Shown piece after piece: positions 17,074 to 58,528 of a stretch of 64,000 nucleotides of DNA (position 1 is its first letter; each line of letters opens with the position of its first letter). The notes under the pieces were generated by a model. It saw only the letters and a list, made by a program, of their open reading frames with translations, searched no databases and had not been told where the DNA came from. Both the position numbers and the translations under genes were made by a program. This DNA comes from a virus (taxonomy: Duplodnaviria > Caudoviricetes), in IMG/VR virus record IMGVR_UViG_3300028854_000488; one strand, written 5' to 3'.

Positions 17074-17316
17074 ATGAAAAAAATAAAGAATTTTTTAGAT
17101 TATAATTCTATGAATGAAAAATGGGAAGAAGATGTTAAAGTTAAGCATACTGGTGAACATGCAGGTAAAACTATTGAAGAATTAAATAATGAATTATCAT
17201 CACTTAAAAAAAGAAGTAAGAAATATCAAGATGAAGGTAAAGATGTGCCTAAGAGTATTATTGATCAAGAGCAAGAAATAAATTTTGCAATTAGAGCAAA
17301 ACGAAATTGGAAATAA
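17074..17316 (+). CDS. Small protein with CTS-like N-terminus
   Basis: MKKIKNFLDYNSMNE; AATATATA upstream. Confidence 0.65.
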   Translation: MKKIKNFLDYNSMNEKWEEDVKVKHTGEHAGKTIEELNNELSSLKKRSKKYQDEGKDVPKSIIDQEQEINFAIRAKRNWK

Positions 17317-17345
17317 AAAAAGCTTCTAAAAAGAAGCTTTTTTTT
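17315..17345. terminator. Bidirectional terminator
   Basis: AAAAAAAGCTTC-TAAAAA-GAAGCTTTTTTT. Confidence 0.8.
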
Positions 17346-17346
17346 A

Positions 17347-17868
17347 TTAGTGTTGACTAACTGTTATATTCTTTAAATTATTAAATAATCCATCGTGTTC
17401 AAGTGCGCTATAATAGTTTCCGTCATTATCTGAATAGCTGAAGCAATACATTACTGATCCAGTTACTTCTTTTCCATCAATTATTTGAAGTTTTAACTTT
17501 CTTATATTAAAGAAATCTTTAAGTATTTTTGCTGAATATTTATTTGTAGCATTGTTATATGCTGTCCATCTATCAGATGAATCCTCTATATATTTAAAAT
17601 CATCATATTCAGGCGCTCCATCTCCATAATATCCGCTACTTAAAATTTCAATAGCTTTTTCAGTATTATTTTTAGTTTGATCACATATGTCAGACCATAC
17701 AGTCATTGCAACTTGTTCAACTGAATAAGTATTATCAAAATCATAATATGATTGATTTTTAGTGAATAACATATTTTTTACATCATTTACACATTTAGGT
17801 TCCATTGGAAAAATAACGATAAAACTACTTGATGATGAGTTACTAACAAAACCATTTCTTATTTTCAT
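17347..17868 (-). CDS. MKIRxGFVSNSSSSSF family protein 1
   Basis: MKIRNGFVSNSSSSSFIV. Confidence 0.8.
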   Translation of the reverse strand: MKIRNGFVSNSSSSSFIVIFPMEPKCVNDVKNMLFTKNQSYYDFDNTYSVEQVAMTVWSDICDQTKNNTEKAIEILSSGYYGDGAPEYDDFKYIEDSSDRWTAYNNATNKYSAKILKDFFNIRKLKLQIIDGKEVTGSVMYCFSYSDNDGNYYSALEHDGLFNNLKNITVSQH

Positions 17869-18035
17869 ATTATTTTATTTTTATCTTTTTTATTAGTTAA
17901 ATCTATTTTGATGTCTGGTTTTTTGAAAATTGCTTCAAAAATTCCTACAATAAAACTTCCTATAATAGAAATTATTAAAAAACATCCAATAAATGTCCAA
18001 AAATCTGAAGTTACATATTTTAAAATTTCTATCAT
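17865..18035 (-). CDS. 56-aa single-TM protein
   Basis: Manual translation MIEILKYVTSDFWTFIGCFLIISIIGSFIVGIFEAIF...; ATGA overlap with the next gene. Confidence 0.5.
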   Translation of the reverse strand: MIEILKYVTSDFWTFIGCFLIISIIGSFIVGIFEAIFKKPDIKIDLTNKKDKNKII

Positions 18036-18670
18036 ATATTTTTATTTATTTCGTCTAATTTATCTTTTCTTTTATATATTGGATTACACACTAAACATAT
18101 AAGTCCATGTTTTTTTGTGTTCCACATATCATAATAATCGCCATTTTTCTTACATTTTGGACAATATGTTGAACTTTCTTTACCAACTATTTTAAAATCT
18201 AAAGAATAATAATCATTATCAAAAGCATCAAAATCATTTTCATATTTAGTTAAATATTCTATAGTATTCCAGTCATCACTATTAACTTTATAATTTTGTT
18301 GTATTATTCTTAATTCTGATATCGCATCATCTGATAATTTTGTATTATATTCATACAACTCCCAATCTTCGTTATTGCATGTAGAAACTAAATAGCGATC
18401 AGCTACTTTTTTTATATATGTATCATAGTTACAACTTTGAAAGGTTATAGCTTGATTTTCATCTATATTTTTTAATATATTAATATATGAATTATATTCA
18501 GTTATACTATATGCATCATATTCTTTATTTTTCATATCATTATCAATATATTGTTCATATTTTACATTAATCATATATGTAGCAAGATCACGTACACTCT
18601 TAAAACTTTTATCAGAAATTATAAAACTACTAGATGACGAATTACTTACAAATCCACTTCTTATTTTCAT
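18032..18670 (-). CDS. MKIRxGFVSNSSSSSF family protein 2 with C-terminal Zn ribbon
   Basis: MKIRSGFVSNSSSSSF; CPKC...CLVC; ends KRKDKLDEI. Confidence 0.8.
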   Translation of the reverse strand: MKIRSGFVSNSSSSSFIISDKSFKSVRDLATYMINVKYEQYIDNDMKNKEYDAYSITEYNSYINILKNIDENQAITFQSCNYDTYIKKVADRYLVSTCNNEDWELYEYNTKLSDDAISELRIIQQNYKVNSDDWNTIEYLTKYENDFDAFDNDYYSLDFKIVGKESSTYCPKCKKNGDYYDMWNTKKHGLICLVCNPIYKRKDKLDEINKNI

Positions 18671-18684
18671 TTTTATTATTTATA

Positions 18685-18987
18685 TTAACAATATCTAGTT
18701 CCAGTTATTAATTCAACTTCACTGATATCAACATTTAATGTTTCAGATACCAATTTAGATTTTTCTATTATATCATCTATTGATGTTATACTACTATATA
18801 ATTCTTCTCCATTTGAAATTATATAACCAATAATATAATTATAGTTAGTCATATCCACATAAAGTGTTTCTATTCCATTATCAAACCCTTGTTCAATTTC
18901 TTCTTCTGTACAATCTAATCTTTTGACTCCAATTATTACAAAACTACTTGAACTTGAATTACTTACAAATCCTGTTCTTATTTTCAT
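18685..18987 (-). CDS. MKIRxGFVSNSSSSSF family protein 3
   Basis: MKIRTGFVSNSSSSSF. Confidence 0.8.
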   Translation of the reverse strand: MKIRTGFVSNSSSSSFVIIGVKRLDCTEEEIEQGFDNGIETLYVDMTNYNYIIGYIISNGEELYSSITSIDDIIEKSKLVSETLNVDISEVELITGTRYC

Positions 18988-19007
18988 TTTTTATTTATCT
19001 TTTATTT

Positions 19008-20042
19008 TTATAATAAATGTGGTTTTGCTTCAGCAATTCCAGCATTTGTTACTTGAACCCATTTTGGATTATATTCAGATAGATTGTTAGCTCCACCATA
19101 AGATAATGCTGAACGAACTCCATCTATTAATCCTTCTATTACAAATTTGACACCACCTTTAAATGGTATTGTTGTTGACTCACCTTCCACGTTTCTTTCT
19201 GCTTGATTGTGAACAGTTTTTGTTTCTAATGAAGCAGAGCCTCTATAACGTTTATATAAGCCATTAGAACTCTCTATAATCTTTCCTGGTGACTCTTCTG
19301 TTCCAGCTAATAGAGAACCTAACATAACACTAGATGATCCTAATGCAAGAGCCTTAGAAATATCACCGCTATTTCTAATTCCTCCATCTGCCATAACAGG
19401 AACTTTAGCAACAGATATAATATCAATTAAACTTGTTACACTTGGTATTCCAAATCCTGTTTTTAACCTTGTTGTACATAACGCCCCATTTCCAATTCCG
19501 CATCTTAATCCATCAGCACCCCAATTCTGTAAATCAATTGCTGCTTCTGCTGTTGCAATGTTACCTGCAATTACATCAATATTTAAATTTAAGCCTTTAA
19601 TTGCTTCAATTGCTTTTTTGACATTTATATGATGTCCATGAGCAACATCAATAAGAATGACATTTACTCCAGATTTAATTAATTCTTTTGCTCTTTCTAA
19701 AAAATCTCCAGTTGATCCTACTGCAGCCATTATTGGAATTTTACGTCCAATAAAAGGATTATGAGAACTATTATTAATATAATTAGTTAATTTTTTAATT
19801 TCAACAATTTGATCTTCTATAGTCATAAATCTATGAATACATCCAATGCCTCCTAATTGAAACATTTTACATGCCATTTCATATTCACAAACTGTATCCA
19901 TTGGTGATGCAACTAATGGTATAATTAATTCATAATTTTTTGATAACTTTGTTATTAAACTAATTTCACTTCTATGTTCTACTTCAGAATATGATGGTAT
20001 GTTTTGAATATCGTCATATGTTAATGCTATATTATTTATCAT
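19008..20042 (-). CDS. guaB: IMP dehydrogenase / GMP reductase family protein, no CBS domain
   Basis: ASPMDTV, IDVAHGH, GNIAT, GIGNGALCTTR, ADGGIR, YRGSAS, EG motifs; GuaB vs GuaC not resolved. Confidence 0.85.
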   Translation of the reverse strand: MINNIALTYDDIQNIPSYSEVEHRSEISLITKLSKNYELIIPLVASPMDTVCEYEMACKMFQLGGIGCIHRFMTIEDQIVEIKKLTNYINNSSHNPFIGRKIPIMAAVGSTGDFLERAKELIKSGVNVILIDVAHGHHINVKKAIEAIKGLNLNIDVIAGNIATAEAAIDLQNWGADGLRCGIGNGALCTTRLKTGFGIPSVTSLIDIISVAKVPVMADGGIRNSGDISKALALGSSSVMLGSLLAGTEESPGKIIESSNGLYKRYRGSASLETKTVHNQAERNVEGESTTIPFKGGVKFVIEGLIDGVRSALSYGGANNLSEYNPKWVQVTNAGIAEAKPHLL

Positions 20043-20087
20043 TTTTTATTTTATATTTTATATTATTTAATTTTTATTTAATTTTCA

Positions 20088-20531
20088 TTAAAATGATATT
20101 AATTTTAAATATCTACTATCAAAATTAATACTATTATTTATATGAGATCGTAATATTGGATGCAATTTAAAACTTAAATCTGAATCAGATATTATATCAA
20201 TATTTCCAATATATTTTTCGAAATTTTTAATTACATTTTTAGTATTATTAATATTAGAATTTAATATAAAATTAATAATATTTAATAATTCAAAATCTTG
20301 CTTATTAATTTTCCATATTTCACAATATTTAGACCAAAAATTCATATCATAATCTATCTCTTGTTTCTTATAATTATTTTCAATATCACATATAAAAATA
20401 TTTTTACCTAATTTATTAAAAAAAGTCATTGATTTTTCTATTAAATAATCAGGTGATGTATATATGATTTTATTATCATTTAACATAATACCAAGGTAAT
20501 AAAATATATTATGAATTTGATTTTTTGTCAT
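20088..20531 (-). CDS. Hypothetical protein
   Basis: ORF in the minus-strand operon. Confidence 0.6.
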   Translation of the reverse strand: MTKNQIHNIFYYLGIMLNDNKIIYTSPDYLIEKSMTFFNKLGKNIFICDIENNYKKQEIDYDMNFWSKYCEIWKINKQDFELLNIINFILNSNINNTKNVIKNFEKYIGNIDIISDSDLSFKLHPILRSHINNSINFDSRYLKLISF

Positions 20532-20556
20532 AATTTTTTTAATTATAAATAATTAT

Positions 20557-20949
20557 TTAATAATTGTCATTACTTACCATTTGAATATACGTGCAAATTA
20601 CTCCTGAAATTCCATATTTTTCAAATTTTTGACGTAATGCATCATCTTCTTCTGGTGTACGATCTTTAAATTCTGTTACTTCACCATCTTCTAATCCACC
20701 GAGTGAATCACCTACAATAAGAGTATTATAATCTTTTTCTCCAAAATAATTACCATTTACTTCAATTCTGAAATCATCATCAATTTTATTTGATATAAAT
20801 TCATATTTATCATATTCATCTTCAATATTATCAAATTCTTCAATAGGAATATTTAATACTTTAACTAATTCTTCTACTGTAATTTTAATTCCTCTTATCA
20901 CAAAAGATGAACTACTTGAATTACTTACAAAACCATTTCTTATTTTCAT
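20557..20949 (-). CDS. MKIRxGFVSNSSSSSF family protein 4
   Basis: MKIRNGFVSNSSSSSF. Confidence 0.8.
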   Translation of the reverse strand: MKIRNGFVSNSSSSSFVIRGIKITVEELVKVLNIPIEEFDNIEDEYDKYEFISNKIDDDFRIEVNGNYFGEKDYNTLIVGDSLGGLEDGEVTEFKDRTPEEDDALRQKFEKYGISGVICTYIQMVSNDNY

Positions 20950-20968
20950 TTAATTTTTTTTTTTAATT

Positions 20969-21412
20969 TTAATAACTTCCTCCACTTTGAATACGAATGT
21001 TATCATTATCAACATTTATTCCTTTATCACATAGATAAGATTCTAGTCCATCACCAGAATCATCAGATGCTGAACATTCATAATAACGATATTCTTTATT
21101 CTTTATTTTTTCTAACTCTTCTCTTGAAATATCAGGACAACTATCATTTATAATTATATTTATCATATCTTCTTCTGATAAATTTTTATCTTCTGAATAA
21201 CAATAATTATTAAATATATCTTTAATAGTCATTTCTTTTAGATTTTCTAACATCCAATTAGATAATTCAGAAGCAAATCCACATAGAATAGAGTTTTCTT
21301 TTAAATCAAATAATTTCATAAGCATATTATTTGATATTTTTTGATCATTTTTAATAAGAACTATAAAAGAACTACTACTACTGTTGCTTACAAATCCATT
21401 TCGTATTTTCAT
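20969..21412 (-). CDS. MKIRxGFVSNSSSSSF family protein 5
   Basis: MKIRNGFVSNSSSSSF. Confidence 0.8.
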   Translation of the reverse strand: MKIRNGFVSNSSSSSFIVLIKNDQKISNNMLMKLFDLKENSILCGFASELSNWMLENLKEMTIKDIFNNYCYSEDKNLSEEDMINIIINDSCPDISREELEKIKNKEYRYYECSASDDSGDGLESYLCDKGINVDNDNIRIQSGGSY

Positions 21413-21413
21413 A

Positions 21414-21767
21414 TTATTTATTATTTAAAATTTCATTAATTTTATTTTTATTTGCAATAATAATTTTGCCTTCATCTGGTCCACCTTCAACTTCTGCAAT
21501 TACATATGGCTTAACTAATTTATCTAAATGATCAGGAAAATCGAAATCTTCAAATTCATCTGTATTACAATACTCATATATGGAATCATACCATAATTCT
21601 TCATTGTCGATGAGCATTTTTAATAAGTCTTTAAATCCATCTAATGGAAAATCTTCATATTTATTAGTAATCTTATCATAATCAATAACATCAAGAAAAT
21701 TCTCAGGTAACAGAATTACAAAAGACGAACTACTTGAGTTGCTCACAAATCCACTTCTTATTTTCAT
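21414..21767 (-). CDS. MKIRxGFVSNSSSSSF family protein 6
   Basis: MKIRSGFVSNSSSSSF. Confidence 0.8.
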   Translation of the reverse strand: MKIRSGFVSNSSSSSFVILLPENFLDVIDYDKITNKYEDFPLDGFKDLLKMLIDNEELWYDSIYEYCNTDEFEDFDFPDHLDKLVKPYVIAEVEGGPDEGKIIIANKNKINEILNNK

Positions 21768-21792: not shown

Positions 21793-22306
21793 TTAGTTTA
21801 TTAATCTATCAATTCCTATTGCAAATCCAACTCCTCCATCATATTCTCCCCCACCACAAATTTGTTTTGATGAACCTAATTTTTCACAAGTGATTTCAAA
21901 TCCTTTACCGTCTTTATAATAATCAAGTCCTCGTTTAACATCATTATTAATGATATAATTATCAATATTGACAGTGAAATTATTTGTTAATAATTTCATT
22001 GCTAAATGTTGTAAATTTGCTCCTTCAGATAGATAATCATGAGTAGGATTTAATATTTCAACTCCAAATTGTGTAAATTCTCGGAATCTTGCATATTGTG
22101 GTTTTTCACCACGGAAACATCATGTTGTTATTCTCTTCACCAACTTTATTTTTGAATAATTCTTGAAGTTGAATAATAGGTATTTGAATTTCTTGAAAAT
22201 GATATTCATCAATTAATATTGTAATCATAGAATTAATCAAGTTTCTCTTTTCATTACCAACTAAAATTCTGGTTCCTTTATAACAAGTTTCTTTTATTAT
22301 TTTCAT
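21793..22306 (-). pseudogene. hisS: Histidyl-tRNA-synthetase-like catalytic core, frameshifted by an internal deletion
   Basis: Frame A: YKGTR...FQEIQIPII...KVGEENNNMMF. Shifted frame from 22119: CFRGEKPQYARFREFTQFGVE (motif 2)...GGGEYDGGVGFAIGIDRL (motif 3). No anticodon-binding domain. Confidence 0.75.
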
Positions 22307-26517: not shown

Positions 26518-27558
26518 ATGGAAGAATGTAAAATATGTAATAAAAAGTTTAAAAGTTGGGGAGGGTTAATTAAACACGTAATTTCATCTCACAATGTTTC
26601 TAAAAAATACTATTATGACTCTTTCTATAAAAAAGAGAATGAAGGAATATGTCCTGTTTGTGGCGAAGAAGCAAGTTTTAATAAAAGAGCATTTGGCTAT
26701 TTTATACATTGTTCAAATAAATGTGTAAATAAAAATCCAAAAACAAGGGAGAAAATAATAGAAACAAATATGATAAGATATGGAGTATCAAATAATACTC
26801 AATTAGATTACTATAAAAATTTAAATCGTGAAATTTGGAAAAATAAATCAAAAGAAGATCTTGACAGTATTGTACAAAAAACAAAAAATACATGTTTAGA
26901 AAAATATGGTGAAGATAATCCTGCAAAATTAGATGATGTTAAACAAAAAATGAAAGATTCTTGTTTAGAAAAATTTGGAACAGAATACGCATTACAAAAT
27001 AAAGATGTGATAGAAAAAAGAAAAATGACAAATTTAGAAAAATATGGTGTTGAAAATGTATTTCAAATTCCAGATATTATTAAAAAATTACGTCAAAACA
27101 TGATTGATAAAGGATATAGAGTAGATGAAAACGATTATACAAAATTTGAAAATTATTATAAAAAATGTCAAAGTTTAACAAAAATAAACATTAGAGCTAC
27201 CAATTTTAAAGAAAATTGGAATGGTTATGATTATTATGATAATGAATATATAAAAGATAATTATGTATTATATGAACAAAATAATGAAAATTATCCAAAT
27301 ATTGATCATAAAATAAGTATAATTTATGGATTTTTAAACGATATAAATTATGAAGATATTTGTGCTATTGAAAATCTATGTTTCACTAAAAGAAGACATA
27401 ATGCATCAAAACACACAAAAAATGAAGATGATTATAAAAAAGTGACAATTTTTAATTGTCACTTTTTATTAAATTTTATATATCGGACAATCTCTACCGC
27501 AAGACAACAAATTATTTTTAAAATTTTTAGTTTTTTCGTTATTCCAAATATCAGTTAA
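26518..27558 (+). CDS. Zn-finger/repeat HNH-type endonuclease
   Basis: C2H2 and CPVC...CSNKC fingers; T.LEKYG repeats; NIDHKISI...NL...N core. Confidence 0.65.
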   Translation: MEECKICNKKFKSWGGLIKHVISSHNVSKKYYYDSFYKKENEGICPVCGEEASFNKRAFGYFIHCSNKCVNKNPKTREKIIETNMIRYGVSNNTQLDYYKNLNREIWKNKSKEDLDSIVQKTKNTCLEKYGEDNPAKLDDVKQKMKDSCLEKFGTEYALQNKDVIEKRKMTNLEKYGVENVFQIPDIIKKLRQNMIDKGYRVDENDYTKFENYYKKCQSLTKINIRATNFKENWNGYDYYDNEYIKDNYVLYEQNNENYPNIDHKISIIYGFLNDINYEDICAIENLCFTKRRHNASKHTKNEDDYKKVTIFNCHFLLNFIYRTISTARQQIIFKIFSFFVIPNIS

Positions 27559-28551
27559 GAAATCATTACAATTCAATACACTTAATCCGTTTTTCCATTC
27601 ATCATTAACACCTTCACAGAAACTACATGGAAAATAATTTCCATCTACATTTACATAAGAAGAGTAAACTGAACTCTCACAAGGCTCAATACATTGATCC
27701 ATTTGATCTTTAAATTCTGTAGTTAAAGATTCATCTGATTCCAAATAAGTGAAGAATTTGCGACTGCTGCATGAGTCAAATCCGAACCTAATTTTTTTTG
27801 ATATTGAATATTTGCACAATTCATTAAATTTTTCTTGTGATAATTGAGAAAAACCAGTTTTTGCATTTCCTTTCTGCTTGAGTGACAAAAAAATAATAGC
27901 GTTCATTTTACTAAGTCTTGGATCATTTTGCATATCATTTATAACTTCATATGCTGTATCAATAGTATTTTCCGAAATCATAAAATGTATATTTATTTGA
28001 TCCATTCCACGGTTTGTCAATTCAGATATTGCGTTATAAGTCAACTCTTTATCATATACGCTAATTGCTACTGCTCCGCAATATTTTGCAAGATTATCAA
28101 AATACTCTGATGCCATTCTTGCTCCATTAATTGTAACGTTAGGAATTACAGAATTTTCTCTACAATATTCAAAAATTTTCCACATATCAGGATTACTATC
28201 AATATCTCCAATTCCTGCTGCTAATTGAGTTATTGATGGAGGTAGTTTAGAAAATACTTTTTTGAAAGTTTCAAAATTCATATACTTGCCCTTAGAATTA
28301 TTAGATTTATAACAAAATTTACAAGGTGTTCCAACTCCATGACATGTTGTACTAATCTCCATGTCTATGATCTCTGGTAATGATAAATCAATATCTCCAT
28401 CATCTTCTTCTGTTTTACCCCATCTTGCGAAGTAACCGTTTTTCTTATTGAAGAAGAAATTATAGTTTTCTGATTTTAATATTTTAGCATCATTAGTATC
28501 TACAATTAGTGCGTCTTCTCCGTTAGAGAGTTTTAATTTAGTTTGTTTCAT
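27469..28551 (-). CDS. Radical SAM protein with SPASM/twitch-like C-terminus
   Basis: CHGVGTPCKFC (CX6CX2C); CES...VNVDGNYFPCSFC...CGRDC. Confidence 0.8.
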   Translation of the reverse strand: MKQTKLKLSNGEDALIVDTNDAKILKSENYNFFFNKKNGYFARWGKTEEDDGDIDLSLPEIIDMEISTTCHGVGTPCKFCYKSNNSKGKYMNFETFKKVFSKLPPSITQLAAGIGDIDSNPDMWKIFEYCRENSVIPNVTINGARMASEYFDNLAKYCGAVAISVYDKELTYNAISELTNRGMDQINIHFMISENTIDTAYEVINDMQNDPRLSKMNAIIFLSLKQKGNAKTGFSQLSQEKFNELCKYSISKKIRFGFDSCSSRKFFTYLESDESLTTEFKDQMDQCIEPCESSVYSSYVNVDGNYFPCSFCEGVNDEWKNGLSVLNCNDFLTDIWNNEKTKNFKNNLLSCGRDCPIYKI

Positions 28552-57074: not shown

Positions 57075-58528
57075 ATGAAATCAGTTTAAAATTAAGTTAA
57101 TAATTTTTGGGGTAACTACAAACCCCTCTATTCCGTCAATAAATATATTCGGAAATGCTTTTCTTAAAATGTTATAACTACCATTTACATCTGCGTTAAT
57201 TATCACATTTGAATTTTTTATTTTATATAAACCTCTACTTTGACGATATCCACTGAATATTTTTTCGGTTTTGTCTCCGTAAACTGGTATTAAATCTAAA
57301 TTCAAAAATGAAGATTTGCTAGTATAACTTTCTTCTTGTAATATAACTCTTATTCCTTCTTTTTCGCACTTATACGATAACATCGATATAAATCTACTAT
57401 GTGGAATCTGTATGAAATTCTGGTTGTTCTGTTTTGACATGTTGCATTCTTGTTTCCAACCATCATTTTTACCAATAACTAATTTTGATATGTTATTGAT
57501 AATTAATTCTTTAACTATTTGATTACTTGCTTTGTGTAGGTAATCATCTACTTTATTGTTTCGTTTATTTGTTAACTTCCTTATTCCTTTACTTGACTTC
57601 TTTTTATTAGTGATTTCAAGAACTGATTTCATTTCTGCTAAACGTTTATTGTAATATTGATTTGTAGATTTAAGTGGTCTACCATTAAAAATTAATGGTT
57701 GAAATCCTTTAATACTGGTCGTTAATGTCGCTAAATTATTTACACCTAAATCAATTGAAGCGTATCGTTTGTTGTCTCTGACTTGTTTCTTTTCATTATA
57801 GGTATAACACACTTCAATCACGTATTGATCAAGCCTTGGTATTATCCGAACGCAATCTATTGAATTAATATCAGTTAACTTGGTATAGAATTCTATTTTA
57901 GTACCTGATAACTTGATTTTGTTTGTTTTCTTGAATACTTTTCTTGATATCGCTTGATAATTATATGAAATAATAAATCTTCCTTTAATCTTATGAAGAA
58001 ATCCTGGTTGCTCTGGATAACTTTTATACTTTGATTTATTTTTACCATAATCTTTACATGAATTAAAGAAACTTTTGTAATTTCGTTGAACCTGAATGAT
58101 AGTTCCAGTCGCAACTTTCATTGGTAATCTCTGAAAGCACTCTTCAGACTTCATTACTTGATATAACTTATTTAAAGGATTATAATCAGTTGTTTCTAAA
58201 CCTTGTCTGATTAAATAAACTGATCGATTATAGATGTTCTTTGATTTAAAACATAATTCATCACACTCTTTATAATTTGAATGTGATTTAGTAATTATAT
58301 GTCTTTCCGTCAATTTCATGTATTAATACCTAATTTTAATGTATATATTAATAAAAATATATTATTTATTTATATTTTATAGAAATTAAATCATTAAAAG
58401 TTTAAATTAATTTATTATTTTTATTTAACTATTTATTTTAATTTATATGATAAATATTTACTATCTTAGTTTATTAAATCATTTGATGAAATAATTTCAT
58501 TGAAATTCATTATTTTTCATTCATTTAT
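57075..58528 (-). mobile_element. Non-autonomous IS200/IS605 (IS1341-like) element
   Basis: tnpB only, no tnpA; TTCAT at both junctions. Confidence 0.7.
57081..58319 (-). CDS. tnpB: TnpB RNA-guided endonuclease
   Basis: RuvC motifs SIDLGVNNLA, QEESYTSK, NADVNGSYNI. Confidence 0.9.
   Translation of the reverse strand: MKLTERHIITKSHSNYKECDELCFKSKNIYNRSVYLIRQGLETTDYNPLNKLYQVMKSEECFQRLPMKVATGTIIQVQRNYKSFFNSCKDYGKNKSKYKSYPEQPGFLHKIKGRFIISYNYQAISRKVFKKTNKIKLSGTKIEFYTKLTDINSIDCVRIIPRLDQYVIEVCYTYNEKKQVRDNKRYASIDLGVNNLATLTTSIKGFQPLIFNGRPLKSTNQYYNKRLAEMKSVLEITNKKKSSKGIRKLTNKRNNKVDDYLHKASNQIVKELIINNISKLVIGKNDGWKQECNMSKQNNQNFIQIPHSRFISMLSYKCEKEGIRVILQEESYTSKSSFLNLDLIPVYGDKTEKIFSGYRQSRGLYKIKNSNVIINADVNGSYNILRKAFPNIFIDGIEGFVVTPKIINLILN

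Follow-up and report, generated by a model that had tools for sequence, protein, structure and literature searches.

Unrelated small phage proteins share a 16-residue N-terminal tag that is linked to, and probably modified by, a radical SAM/SPASM enzyme

Why should six phage proteins with no other detectable resemblance begin with the same 16 residues? The question is raised by a 64,000-nucleotide stretch of the IMG/VR virus record IMGVR_UViG_3300028854_000488 (hereafter the window, meaning the whole stretch analysed), in which six open reading frames (ORFs) between positions 17,347 and 21,767 all start with the motif MKIR[N/S/T]GFVSNSSSSSF. An earlier reading made from the letters alone (the sequence-only reading) took the motif as a shared tag for post-translational modification on variable cargo, with the product of a radical S-adenosylmethionine (SAM) gene upstream as the candidate modifier. 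The analysis reported here lends support to this proposal, through the linkage of the two kinds of gene and a model of the complex of their products. As the best explanation, we consider it likely that a radical SAM/SPASM enzyme recognises, and probably modifies, the shared N-terminal tag of many unrelated small acidic phage proteins, the enzyme and the tagged proteins making up a two-component system.

All six ORFs were found where the sequence-only reading had placed them, on the minus strand and with lengths of 100-212 aa. From the first gene of the array to the last, they encode proteins of 117 aa (21414..21767, isoelectric point (pI) 4.27), 147 aa (20969..21412, pI 4.47), 130 aa (20557..20949, pI 4.28), 100 aa (18685..18987, pI 4.17), 212 aa (18032..18670, pI 4.98) and 173 aa (17347..17868, pI 4.88); acidity, described before for most of them, is common to all six (pI 4.2-5.0). 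By a six-frame scan the motif is present at these six starts and nowhere else in the window. Pairwise nucleotide identity among the six is 77% over the first 48 nt and 36% over the next 48 nt. Within the 16 codons the amino acid changes at position 5 alone, while Ser codons at the same position alternate between TCN and AGY and the Gly, Val, Asn and Arg codons vary synonymously. Because of this synonymous switching, the Ser TCN/AGY exchange included, selection on the tag acts at the peptide level, and the codon comparison here agrees with what had been argued from the Ser codons. Three other readings were tried and dropped, none of them supported by any search: a signal peptide, since the Ser run breaks the hydrophobic stretch, a nucleotide-binding site of the PP-loop or P-loop type, and self-processing of the pyruvoyl or Ntn type. 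Self-processing and a polymorphic system, both named as options earlier, gain no support from our results.

Past residue 18, the MAFFT alignment of the six proteins shows next to nothing in common. Clustering of the tagged ORFs from related loci (described below) from residue 19 onward (n=285) yields 107 BLAST-level groups. The six proteins of the window are each in a different one of these, with 43, 27, 9, 6, 5 and 3 members. Among them, the part of the 117-aa protein past the tag is in the family of 43, and the 212-, 147-, 130- and 100-aa proteins are in families of 9, 6, 5 and 3 members, respectively. Comparison by hhalign of the six family alignments without the tag gives a probability of <1% for every pair. 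As judged from these alignments, each of the six is a member of its own conserved family and has the tag alone in common with the others, and the word paralogs, previously used for them, is too strong, as they are not detectably related beyond the tag. The PHROG profiles give a similar picture: the 173-aa protein, with homologs in Slopekvirus and Pseudotevenvirus, aligns with phrog_7397 from end to end (E 1.1e-14, its residues 1-173 covering profile positions 1-170), and the matches of the other five are confined to profile positions 1-18 to 1-36. For the 173-aa protein 273 homologs were found, and among homologs the tag is unchanged even at 35% overall identity. Near the C-terminus this family also keeps D147, E157, F162 and its final residue H173 invariant, with D149, G150, H158 and S171 nearly so, which in the alignment looks like a metal-binding or catalytic site. 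The 212-aa protein has two CxxC pairs near its C-terminus that resemble a zinc ribbon, with only a weak match to the zinc-binding YnfU. Beyond this, the six window proteins have no meaningful match in Pfam, NCBIfam or PADLOC, ESM Atlas look-ups of three tagged proteins return nothing but unnamed phage clusters, and Pfam on 107 representative tagged proteins gives one zinc-ribbon match and otherwise none.

The tag is distributed far beyond this window. A profile of its 30 N-terminal positions, searched against 1.84 billion cluster representatives, matches 24,153 of them at E<=0.001 and 591 at E<=1e-10, and in nearly all of the best 150 of the 24,153 the match begins at residue 1; the exceptions among these 150 have a Met at the tag start behind a probably mis-called upstream extension, or have the tag twice. 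From 295 distinct tagged ORFs the logo reads M1 K2 [I/T/V]3 R4 x5 G6 F7 V8 S9 N10 S11-S15 F16 followed by two aliphatic residues, and conservation reaches 100% at R4 and N10, 99% at S11 and S12, 98% at F7 and 95% at G6. Given Lys as the second residue, methionine aminopeptidase would be expected, from its specificity, to leave the initiator Met in place. As a side observation, two copies of the tag occur in some database proteins (in P0121 at residues 1 and 32, and also in P0122, P0142 and P0206), which points to a tag duplicated in tandem or to adjacent tagged genes that were called as one.

It is of interest, then, which gene accompanies the tag. The upstream radical SAM gene of the sequence-only reading is indeed present at 27469..28551, on the same minus strand and 5.7 kb upstream of the array; it encodes a radical SAM/SPASM enzyme of 360 aa (P0262), the predicted partner of the tag. 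Related loci were collected around the enzyme. A search by its single sequence gave one locus, and an alignment of 26 homologs was required for the rest, leading to 80 IMG/VR contigs and 9 contigs of metagenome-assembled genomes (MAGs) with 38-68% identity, in which tagged ORFs were sought by a profile scan of all frames within 10 kb. On the whole, 81 of the 89 enzyme loci hold at least one tagged ORF within this distance, with 324 tagged ORFs in all; the longest array counts 13 tagged genes in a row. The tagged proteins have a median length of 131 aa and reach about 390 aa. All but one of them (323/324) are on the strand of the enzyme and 263 are downstream of it. The closest tagged ORF is at most 150 nt from the enzyme gene in 34 loci and at most 1 kb in 61, often starting 10-100 nt past the enzyme stop codon. 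Of five contigs with no tag inside 10 kb that were searched further, three carry tags elsewhere, and the other two are 13% and 27% complete.

The linkage was also examined in the reverse direction, with 50 contigs picked by a degenerate DNA pattern of the tag alone and searched for the enzyme over their whole length. The enzyme is detected in 33 of the 50, including 10 of 10 with a completeness of at least 90% and 20 of 20 with one of at least 60%, and the tag-picked contigs without it are all at most 40% complete. The 50,697 records of cultured phages show a similar picture: 169 contain the 173-aa family and 172 the enzyme, and the two tallies by genus nearly coincide. In Klebsiella phage Matisse, for example, two tagged genes are accompanied by the enzyme (43% identity) at a distance of about 20 kb. 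Five complete relatives, T4, RB69, RB49, CC31 and KVP40, have neither tag nor enzyme. Thus the co-occurrence of tag and radical SAM gene, proposed earlier as a check on the tag hypothesis, is near-perfect in both directions, involves one radical SAM/SPASM family and is absent from the controls. When all ORFs of the loci are clustered, no third conserved family emerges, the seemingly additional ones being frames antisense to the enzyme gene; a conserved protease or exporter is likewise missing near the pair. In addition, contigs of spirochaete MAGs have the enzyme with one or two tagged genes among ordinary cellular genes and no phage genes nearby, so that the pair may also exist as a small cellular or mobile module. 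The neighbours in two such Treponema/Spirochaetia loci (L012, 9998-11481, and L016, 9950-11997) are sugar-transport genes, a LacI regulator, a CCA-adding enzyme (tRNA nucleotidyltransferase) and one DNA methylase.

The fold class of the enzyme is established by structure comparison. In its AlphaFold2 (AF2) model, with a pLDDT of 91.2, an N-terminal domain of five strands is followed by a barrel and then by a Cys-rich, SPASM-like part at the C-terminus. By Foldseek, 137 PDB entries match at E<=0.001, and all of the best 50 of these 137 are radical SAM enzymes with probability 1.00. The closest solved folds are SkfB, SuiB (including a precursor-bound entry), CteB and TigE, then anSME and PqqE; for SkfB, SuiB and CteB the TM-score to the enzyme is 0.62-0.68 over about 416 columns, the N-terminal domain included. 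In sequence the family is more distant. The Pfam SPASM model (PF13186) scores 22.1 bits, above its cut-off of 21.5, and matches 19 of the 26 homologs. The Radical_SAM model (PF04055) scores 19.8 bits, below its cut-off of 29.5, and matches 13 of 26 at E<=0.01, the best at 1.9e-11. No NCBIfam model matches the enzyme, and its profile against PDB sequences finds spurious PPR-repeat matches only, no solved radical SAM among them. The family, for which 1,146 homologs were found, would accordingly be placed by these scores in a divergent branch of radical SAM enzymes. Eight Cys are invariant in the 26 homologs (70, 77, 80, 261, 291, 309, 351 and 355), and C328 is present in 81%. The first three form the motif C70-X6-C77-X2-C80, with a spacing that differs between homologs; as the canonical radical SAM [4Fe-4S] motif is CX3CX2C, the enzyme carries a non-canonical variant of the SAM-cluster motif. 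From the seven-Cys SPASM motif for two auxiliary clusters, only C261, C291, C309, C351 and C355 are invariant here.

We then come to the question of whether the enzyme binds the tag. In the AF2 model of the 173-aa monomer (pLDDT 85.6), residues 1-9 have values below 50 and form a free tail, followed by a strand at 13-20. The model has no Foldseek PDB match at E<=0.001 (best row E 1.9), and a wide search by VIA-align gives a best Z of 5.1 for a helical piece only. The complex was predicted from the enzyme alignment and residues 1-40 of the 173-aa family, together with SAM and two [4Fe-4S] clusters. In three runs the ipSAE score is 0.89-0.90, compared with 0.01 for the best of three controls and at most 0.01 for the controls swapping either chain; that mark is reached by 58 of 80 solved complexes and by 2 of 110 mismatched pairs. 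The runs have at least 65% of their contacts in common, with a partner pLDDT of at least 53. The interface in this confident model is formed by tag residues 1-18. Residues 1-4 pair with enzyme residues 39-44, a strand of the N-terminal five-strand domain; Phe7 is modelled inside the barrel, touching residues 109, 136, 138, 158-160 and 185 on successive barrel strands; and residues 8-18 run along residues 222, 255-260, 286-289, 297 and 310. Invariant enzyme positions account for 21 of 41 at the interface versus 48 of 319 elsewhere (Fisher p = 7e-7), and within the first 60 residues 4 of the 7 invariant positions fall in the interface. The model supports binding between tag and enzyme, and it speaks to binding, not to chemistry. 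Structure prediction, which the sequence-only reading had also named as a check, therefore leaves its proposal standing: residues 1-9 are a free tail in the 173-aa monomer, no fold common to the six is detectable, and the tag is placed in the barrel of the enzyme.

Based on these results, a mechanism may be drawn up. Residues 1-5 of the tag would add as a β-strand to the invariant enzyme strand 39-44, in the manner of the leader of a ribosomally synthesised and post-translationally modified peptide (RiPP) on its recognition element. Gly6 and Phe7 would then go into the barrel, and the Ser run would lie along the SPASM part. A 5'-deoxyadenosyl radical would take a hydrogen atom at or near Gly6-Ser9, leaving the tag covalently modified, and the site of modification is thus probably near Gly6-Ser9. 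As for the product, an intramolecular cross-link, for example a Phe cyclophane or an ether, might be expected first, at somewhat less than an even chance. Oxidation of Ser C-beta as in formylglycine formation would be about half as probable, epimerisation slightly less so, and some other product would take what is left. Through the modification, a number of phage proteins that probably act on the host would be matured or stabilised. That the cargo consists of host-directed effectors is a guess, made because the cargo is small, acidic and phage-specific.

Several observations weigh against such an explanation. First, the covalent change of the tag is a step that we infer. Second, in the window the enzyme is followed by a terminator-like hairpin and then by 5.7 kb of other genes before the array, and in Matisse the gap between tag and enzyme is about 20 kb; therefore co-transcription is not required, and the arrangement of the genes here indicates that enzyme and array may be separate transcription units. 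The hairpin in question (27437..27467, strand undefined) is palindromic with A/T-run flanks and lies directly 3' of the enzyme stop codon, and a second one of the same type (17315..17344, strand undefined) lies directly 3' of the last tagged gene; both come from a consensus scan only and are terminator-like on both strands. As perfect palindromes, the two could end transcription on either strand. Third, the cluster motif is CX6CX2C rather than CX3CX2C and only 5-6 of the C-terminal Cys are conserved. Fourth, as many of the loci belong to large phages that are related to each other, they do not count as wholly independent events. Fifth, the complex job used small molecules and its own alignments, and the calibration of the score had neither. 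Finally, tag residues 13-20 are a core strand in the 173-aa monomer model, yet the complex uses residues 1-18; therefore the enzyme would act before the cargo folds or would use only residues 1-12.

Among the alternatives, the one that survives best takes the tag as a docking peptide instead of a substrate, with the tagged proteins as interchangeable adaptor or regulatory subunits that steer the enzyme onto a host protein, a nucleic acid or a small molecule. Binding without turnover would fit the linkage and the complex data equally well, the diversity of the cargo (107 BLAST-level groups in 285) is as expected for specificity modules, and the pair is not accompanied by a protease or export gene. 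We nevertheless find it unlikely, since the model puts Phe7 and its neighbours within the barrel on five successive strands, where the substrates of radical SAM enzymes lie, since the closest folds are enzymes that modify the bound peptide itself, and since 15 consecutive near-invariant residues exceed the usual need of docking. Another possibility is that the tag serves a different machine, for capsid targeting as in the T4 internal proteins, for degradation or for localisation, and shares only its phage lineages with the enzyme. The T4 internal-protein locus is similar, in that unrelated small proteins encoded in an array have some 10-16 N-terminal residues in common, and the enzyme is not adjacent to the array in the window. 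This is nevertheless quite improbable in view of the tagged genes at most 150 nt from the enzyme in 34 loci, the 323 of 324 tagged ORFs on its strand, the pair standing alone among cellular genes in spirochaete MAG contigs with no phage genes nearby, a tag without the Glu of a T4-type prohead-protease site, and controls that fall to 0.01 or below when either chain of the complex is swapped. Least of all can the motif be the opening strand or hairpin of a single shared fold that has diverged very far, kept for folding with no enzyme concerned, an idea that could appeal to residues 13-20 as a core β-strand in the 173-aa model and to PHROG grouping all six under phrog_7397 via the N-terminus and that is largely refuted by hhalign values of <1% among the six families without the tag, by residues 1-9 being a free tail in the same model, by the fact that folding cores are not invariant over 24,153 clusters with an unalignable remainder, and by the enzyme linkage that it leaves unexplained.

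Modification of the tag by the enzyme, the reading we prefer, can be compared with a number of known systems. The RiPP maturases SkfB, SuiB with SuiA, and CteB, which have an N-terminal recognition domain, are the best structural matches to the enzyme, its own N-terminal domain included. As in these maturases, a short conserved peptide is predicted to add as a strand and to reach into the barrel, and one enzyme has several substrates with a common recognition sequence. Unlike in SkfB, SuiB and CteB, the substrates here are not short peptides but members of conserved families of 100-212 aa (up to about 390 aa elsewhere), and the conserved part is at the extreme N-terminus and would itself sit in the active site. 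The phage system also has no linked protease or exporter, has CX6CX2C in its enzyme, is mostly phage-borne and lacks a sequence-level match to solved radical SAM enzymes. It does not fall under the definition of a RiPP (a short precursor whose core is released from the leader), since proteins take the place of the short precursor and machinery for a release is not among the linked genes. In multi-precursor RiPPs, such as those with Nif11/NHLP-type leaders and the prochlorosins, a near-invariant N-terminal part is joined to a hypervariable rest, the genes form arrays and one enzyme acts on them. The array layout is alike; there, however, modification falls on the variable core and the leader is removed, whereas here the invariant part is modelled in the catalytic barrel and the variable part as a folded protein.

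Another parallel is anSME/AtsB, which is a SPASM radical SAM enzyme too and modifies a short linear motif in several full-size proteins (structural matches 4k36 and 4k39). As anSME can oxidise Ser, the Ser-rich tag suits this comparison; however, the sulfatase motif (C/S)-x-(P/A)-x-R is not in the tag logo, and the substrates of anSME all have the sulfatase fold, while the cargo here belongs to >100 unrelated groups. PFL with its activase PflA, and GrcA, offer a Gly-aromatic motif (RVxG[YF], compared with IRxGF at residues 3-7 here) acted on by a radical SAM enzyme in a full-size or a small acidic protein, and PflA is a weaker structural match to our enzyme (3c8f). The differences are that the Arg-Gly spacing is off by one, that the motif is N-terminal, whereas the glycyl-radical fingerprint RVxG[FWY] belongs to a C-terminal domain, that there is no Gly_radical Pfam match, that Gly6, conserved at 95%, ranks below R4, F7 and N10, and that glycyl-radical activases have no SPASM domain. 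The T4 internal proteins (IPI-III, Alt) are unrelated small proteins sharing a short N-terminal capsid targeting peptide. This signal ends in a Glu-containing prohead-protease site (L/I-x-E), but tag positions 1-18 are without Glu; moreover, T4 itself has neither tag nor enzyme, and the tag described here has a radical SAM enzyme as its partner.

The known substrates of radical SAM/SPASM enzymes are short peptides and a small number of dedicated proteins. In the present case a single enzyme of this kind seems to serve a whole range of folded proteins, unrelated to one another, via a tiny N-terminal handle. The tag is present in up to about 24,000 protein clusters, mostly of large phages and none with an annotated function. 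The system opens a sizeable part of phage 'dark matter' to experiment. Phages that can be grown on Klebsiella, Enterobacter, Cronobacter and E. coli (Slopekvirus; RB16, RB43) have it too, and direct experiments are possible in them. The system may reveal new post-translational chemistry, and the tag could become a short genetically encoded handle for enzymatic protein modification. Tentatively, one may go further and regard the 16 residues as the handle for a new protein-level radical SAM modification, placing an undescribed cross-link or reactive group on >100 unrelated phage families and required to switch on hidden host-directed effectors in large phages; we would not give this extended form even odds. 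In our literature searches neither the motif nor a phage system of this kind was found described, which is not proof of novelty, as most subscription journals are outside their coverage.

The source of the window is a huge phage of peat soil. The window is AT-rich, with a G+C content of about 22%, and includes gene types of very large phages, namely Hsp70, asparagine synthase, RtcB, TnpB-like and radical SAM/SPASM genes. Peat metagenomes contain DNA near-identical to it, and in metatranscriptome runs only 0.05-0.11 of the stretch is represented. A consensus promoter scan of the window performs no better than on shuffles. The tag array is broken by a GMP reductase/IMPDH-family gene and one ORF of 147 aa. 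The former (19008-20042, minus strand; PF00478, E 2.6e-98) lies inside the array, and a gene of this family adjoins tagged genes in 12 related loci. Between two tagged genes there is also a 56-aa ORF (17865-18035, minus strand) with one strongly hydrophobic stretch, probably a small membrane protein. Just upstream of the array, at 21793-22306 on the minus strand, two short ORFs of 68 and 66 aa resemble the halves of a small HisRS-like gene, and the same place in related loci is occupied by one ORF with a median of about 212 aa. Farther away, the gene at 57081-58319 (minus strand) is TnpB/IS605 OrfB-like, with PF01385 and a Cas12f1-like TNB domain.

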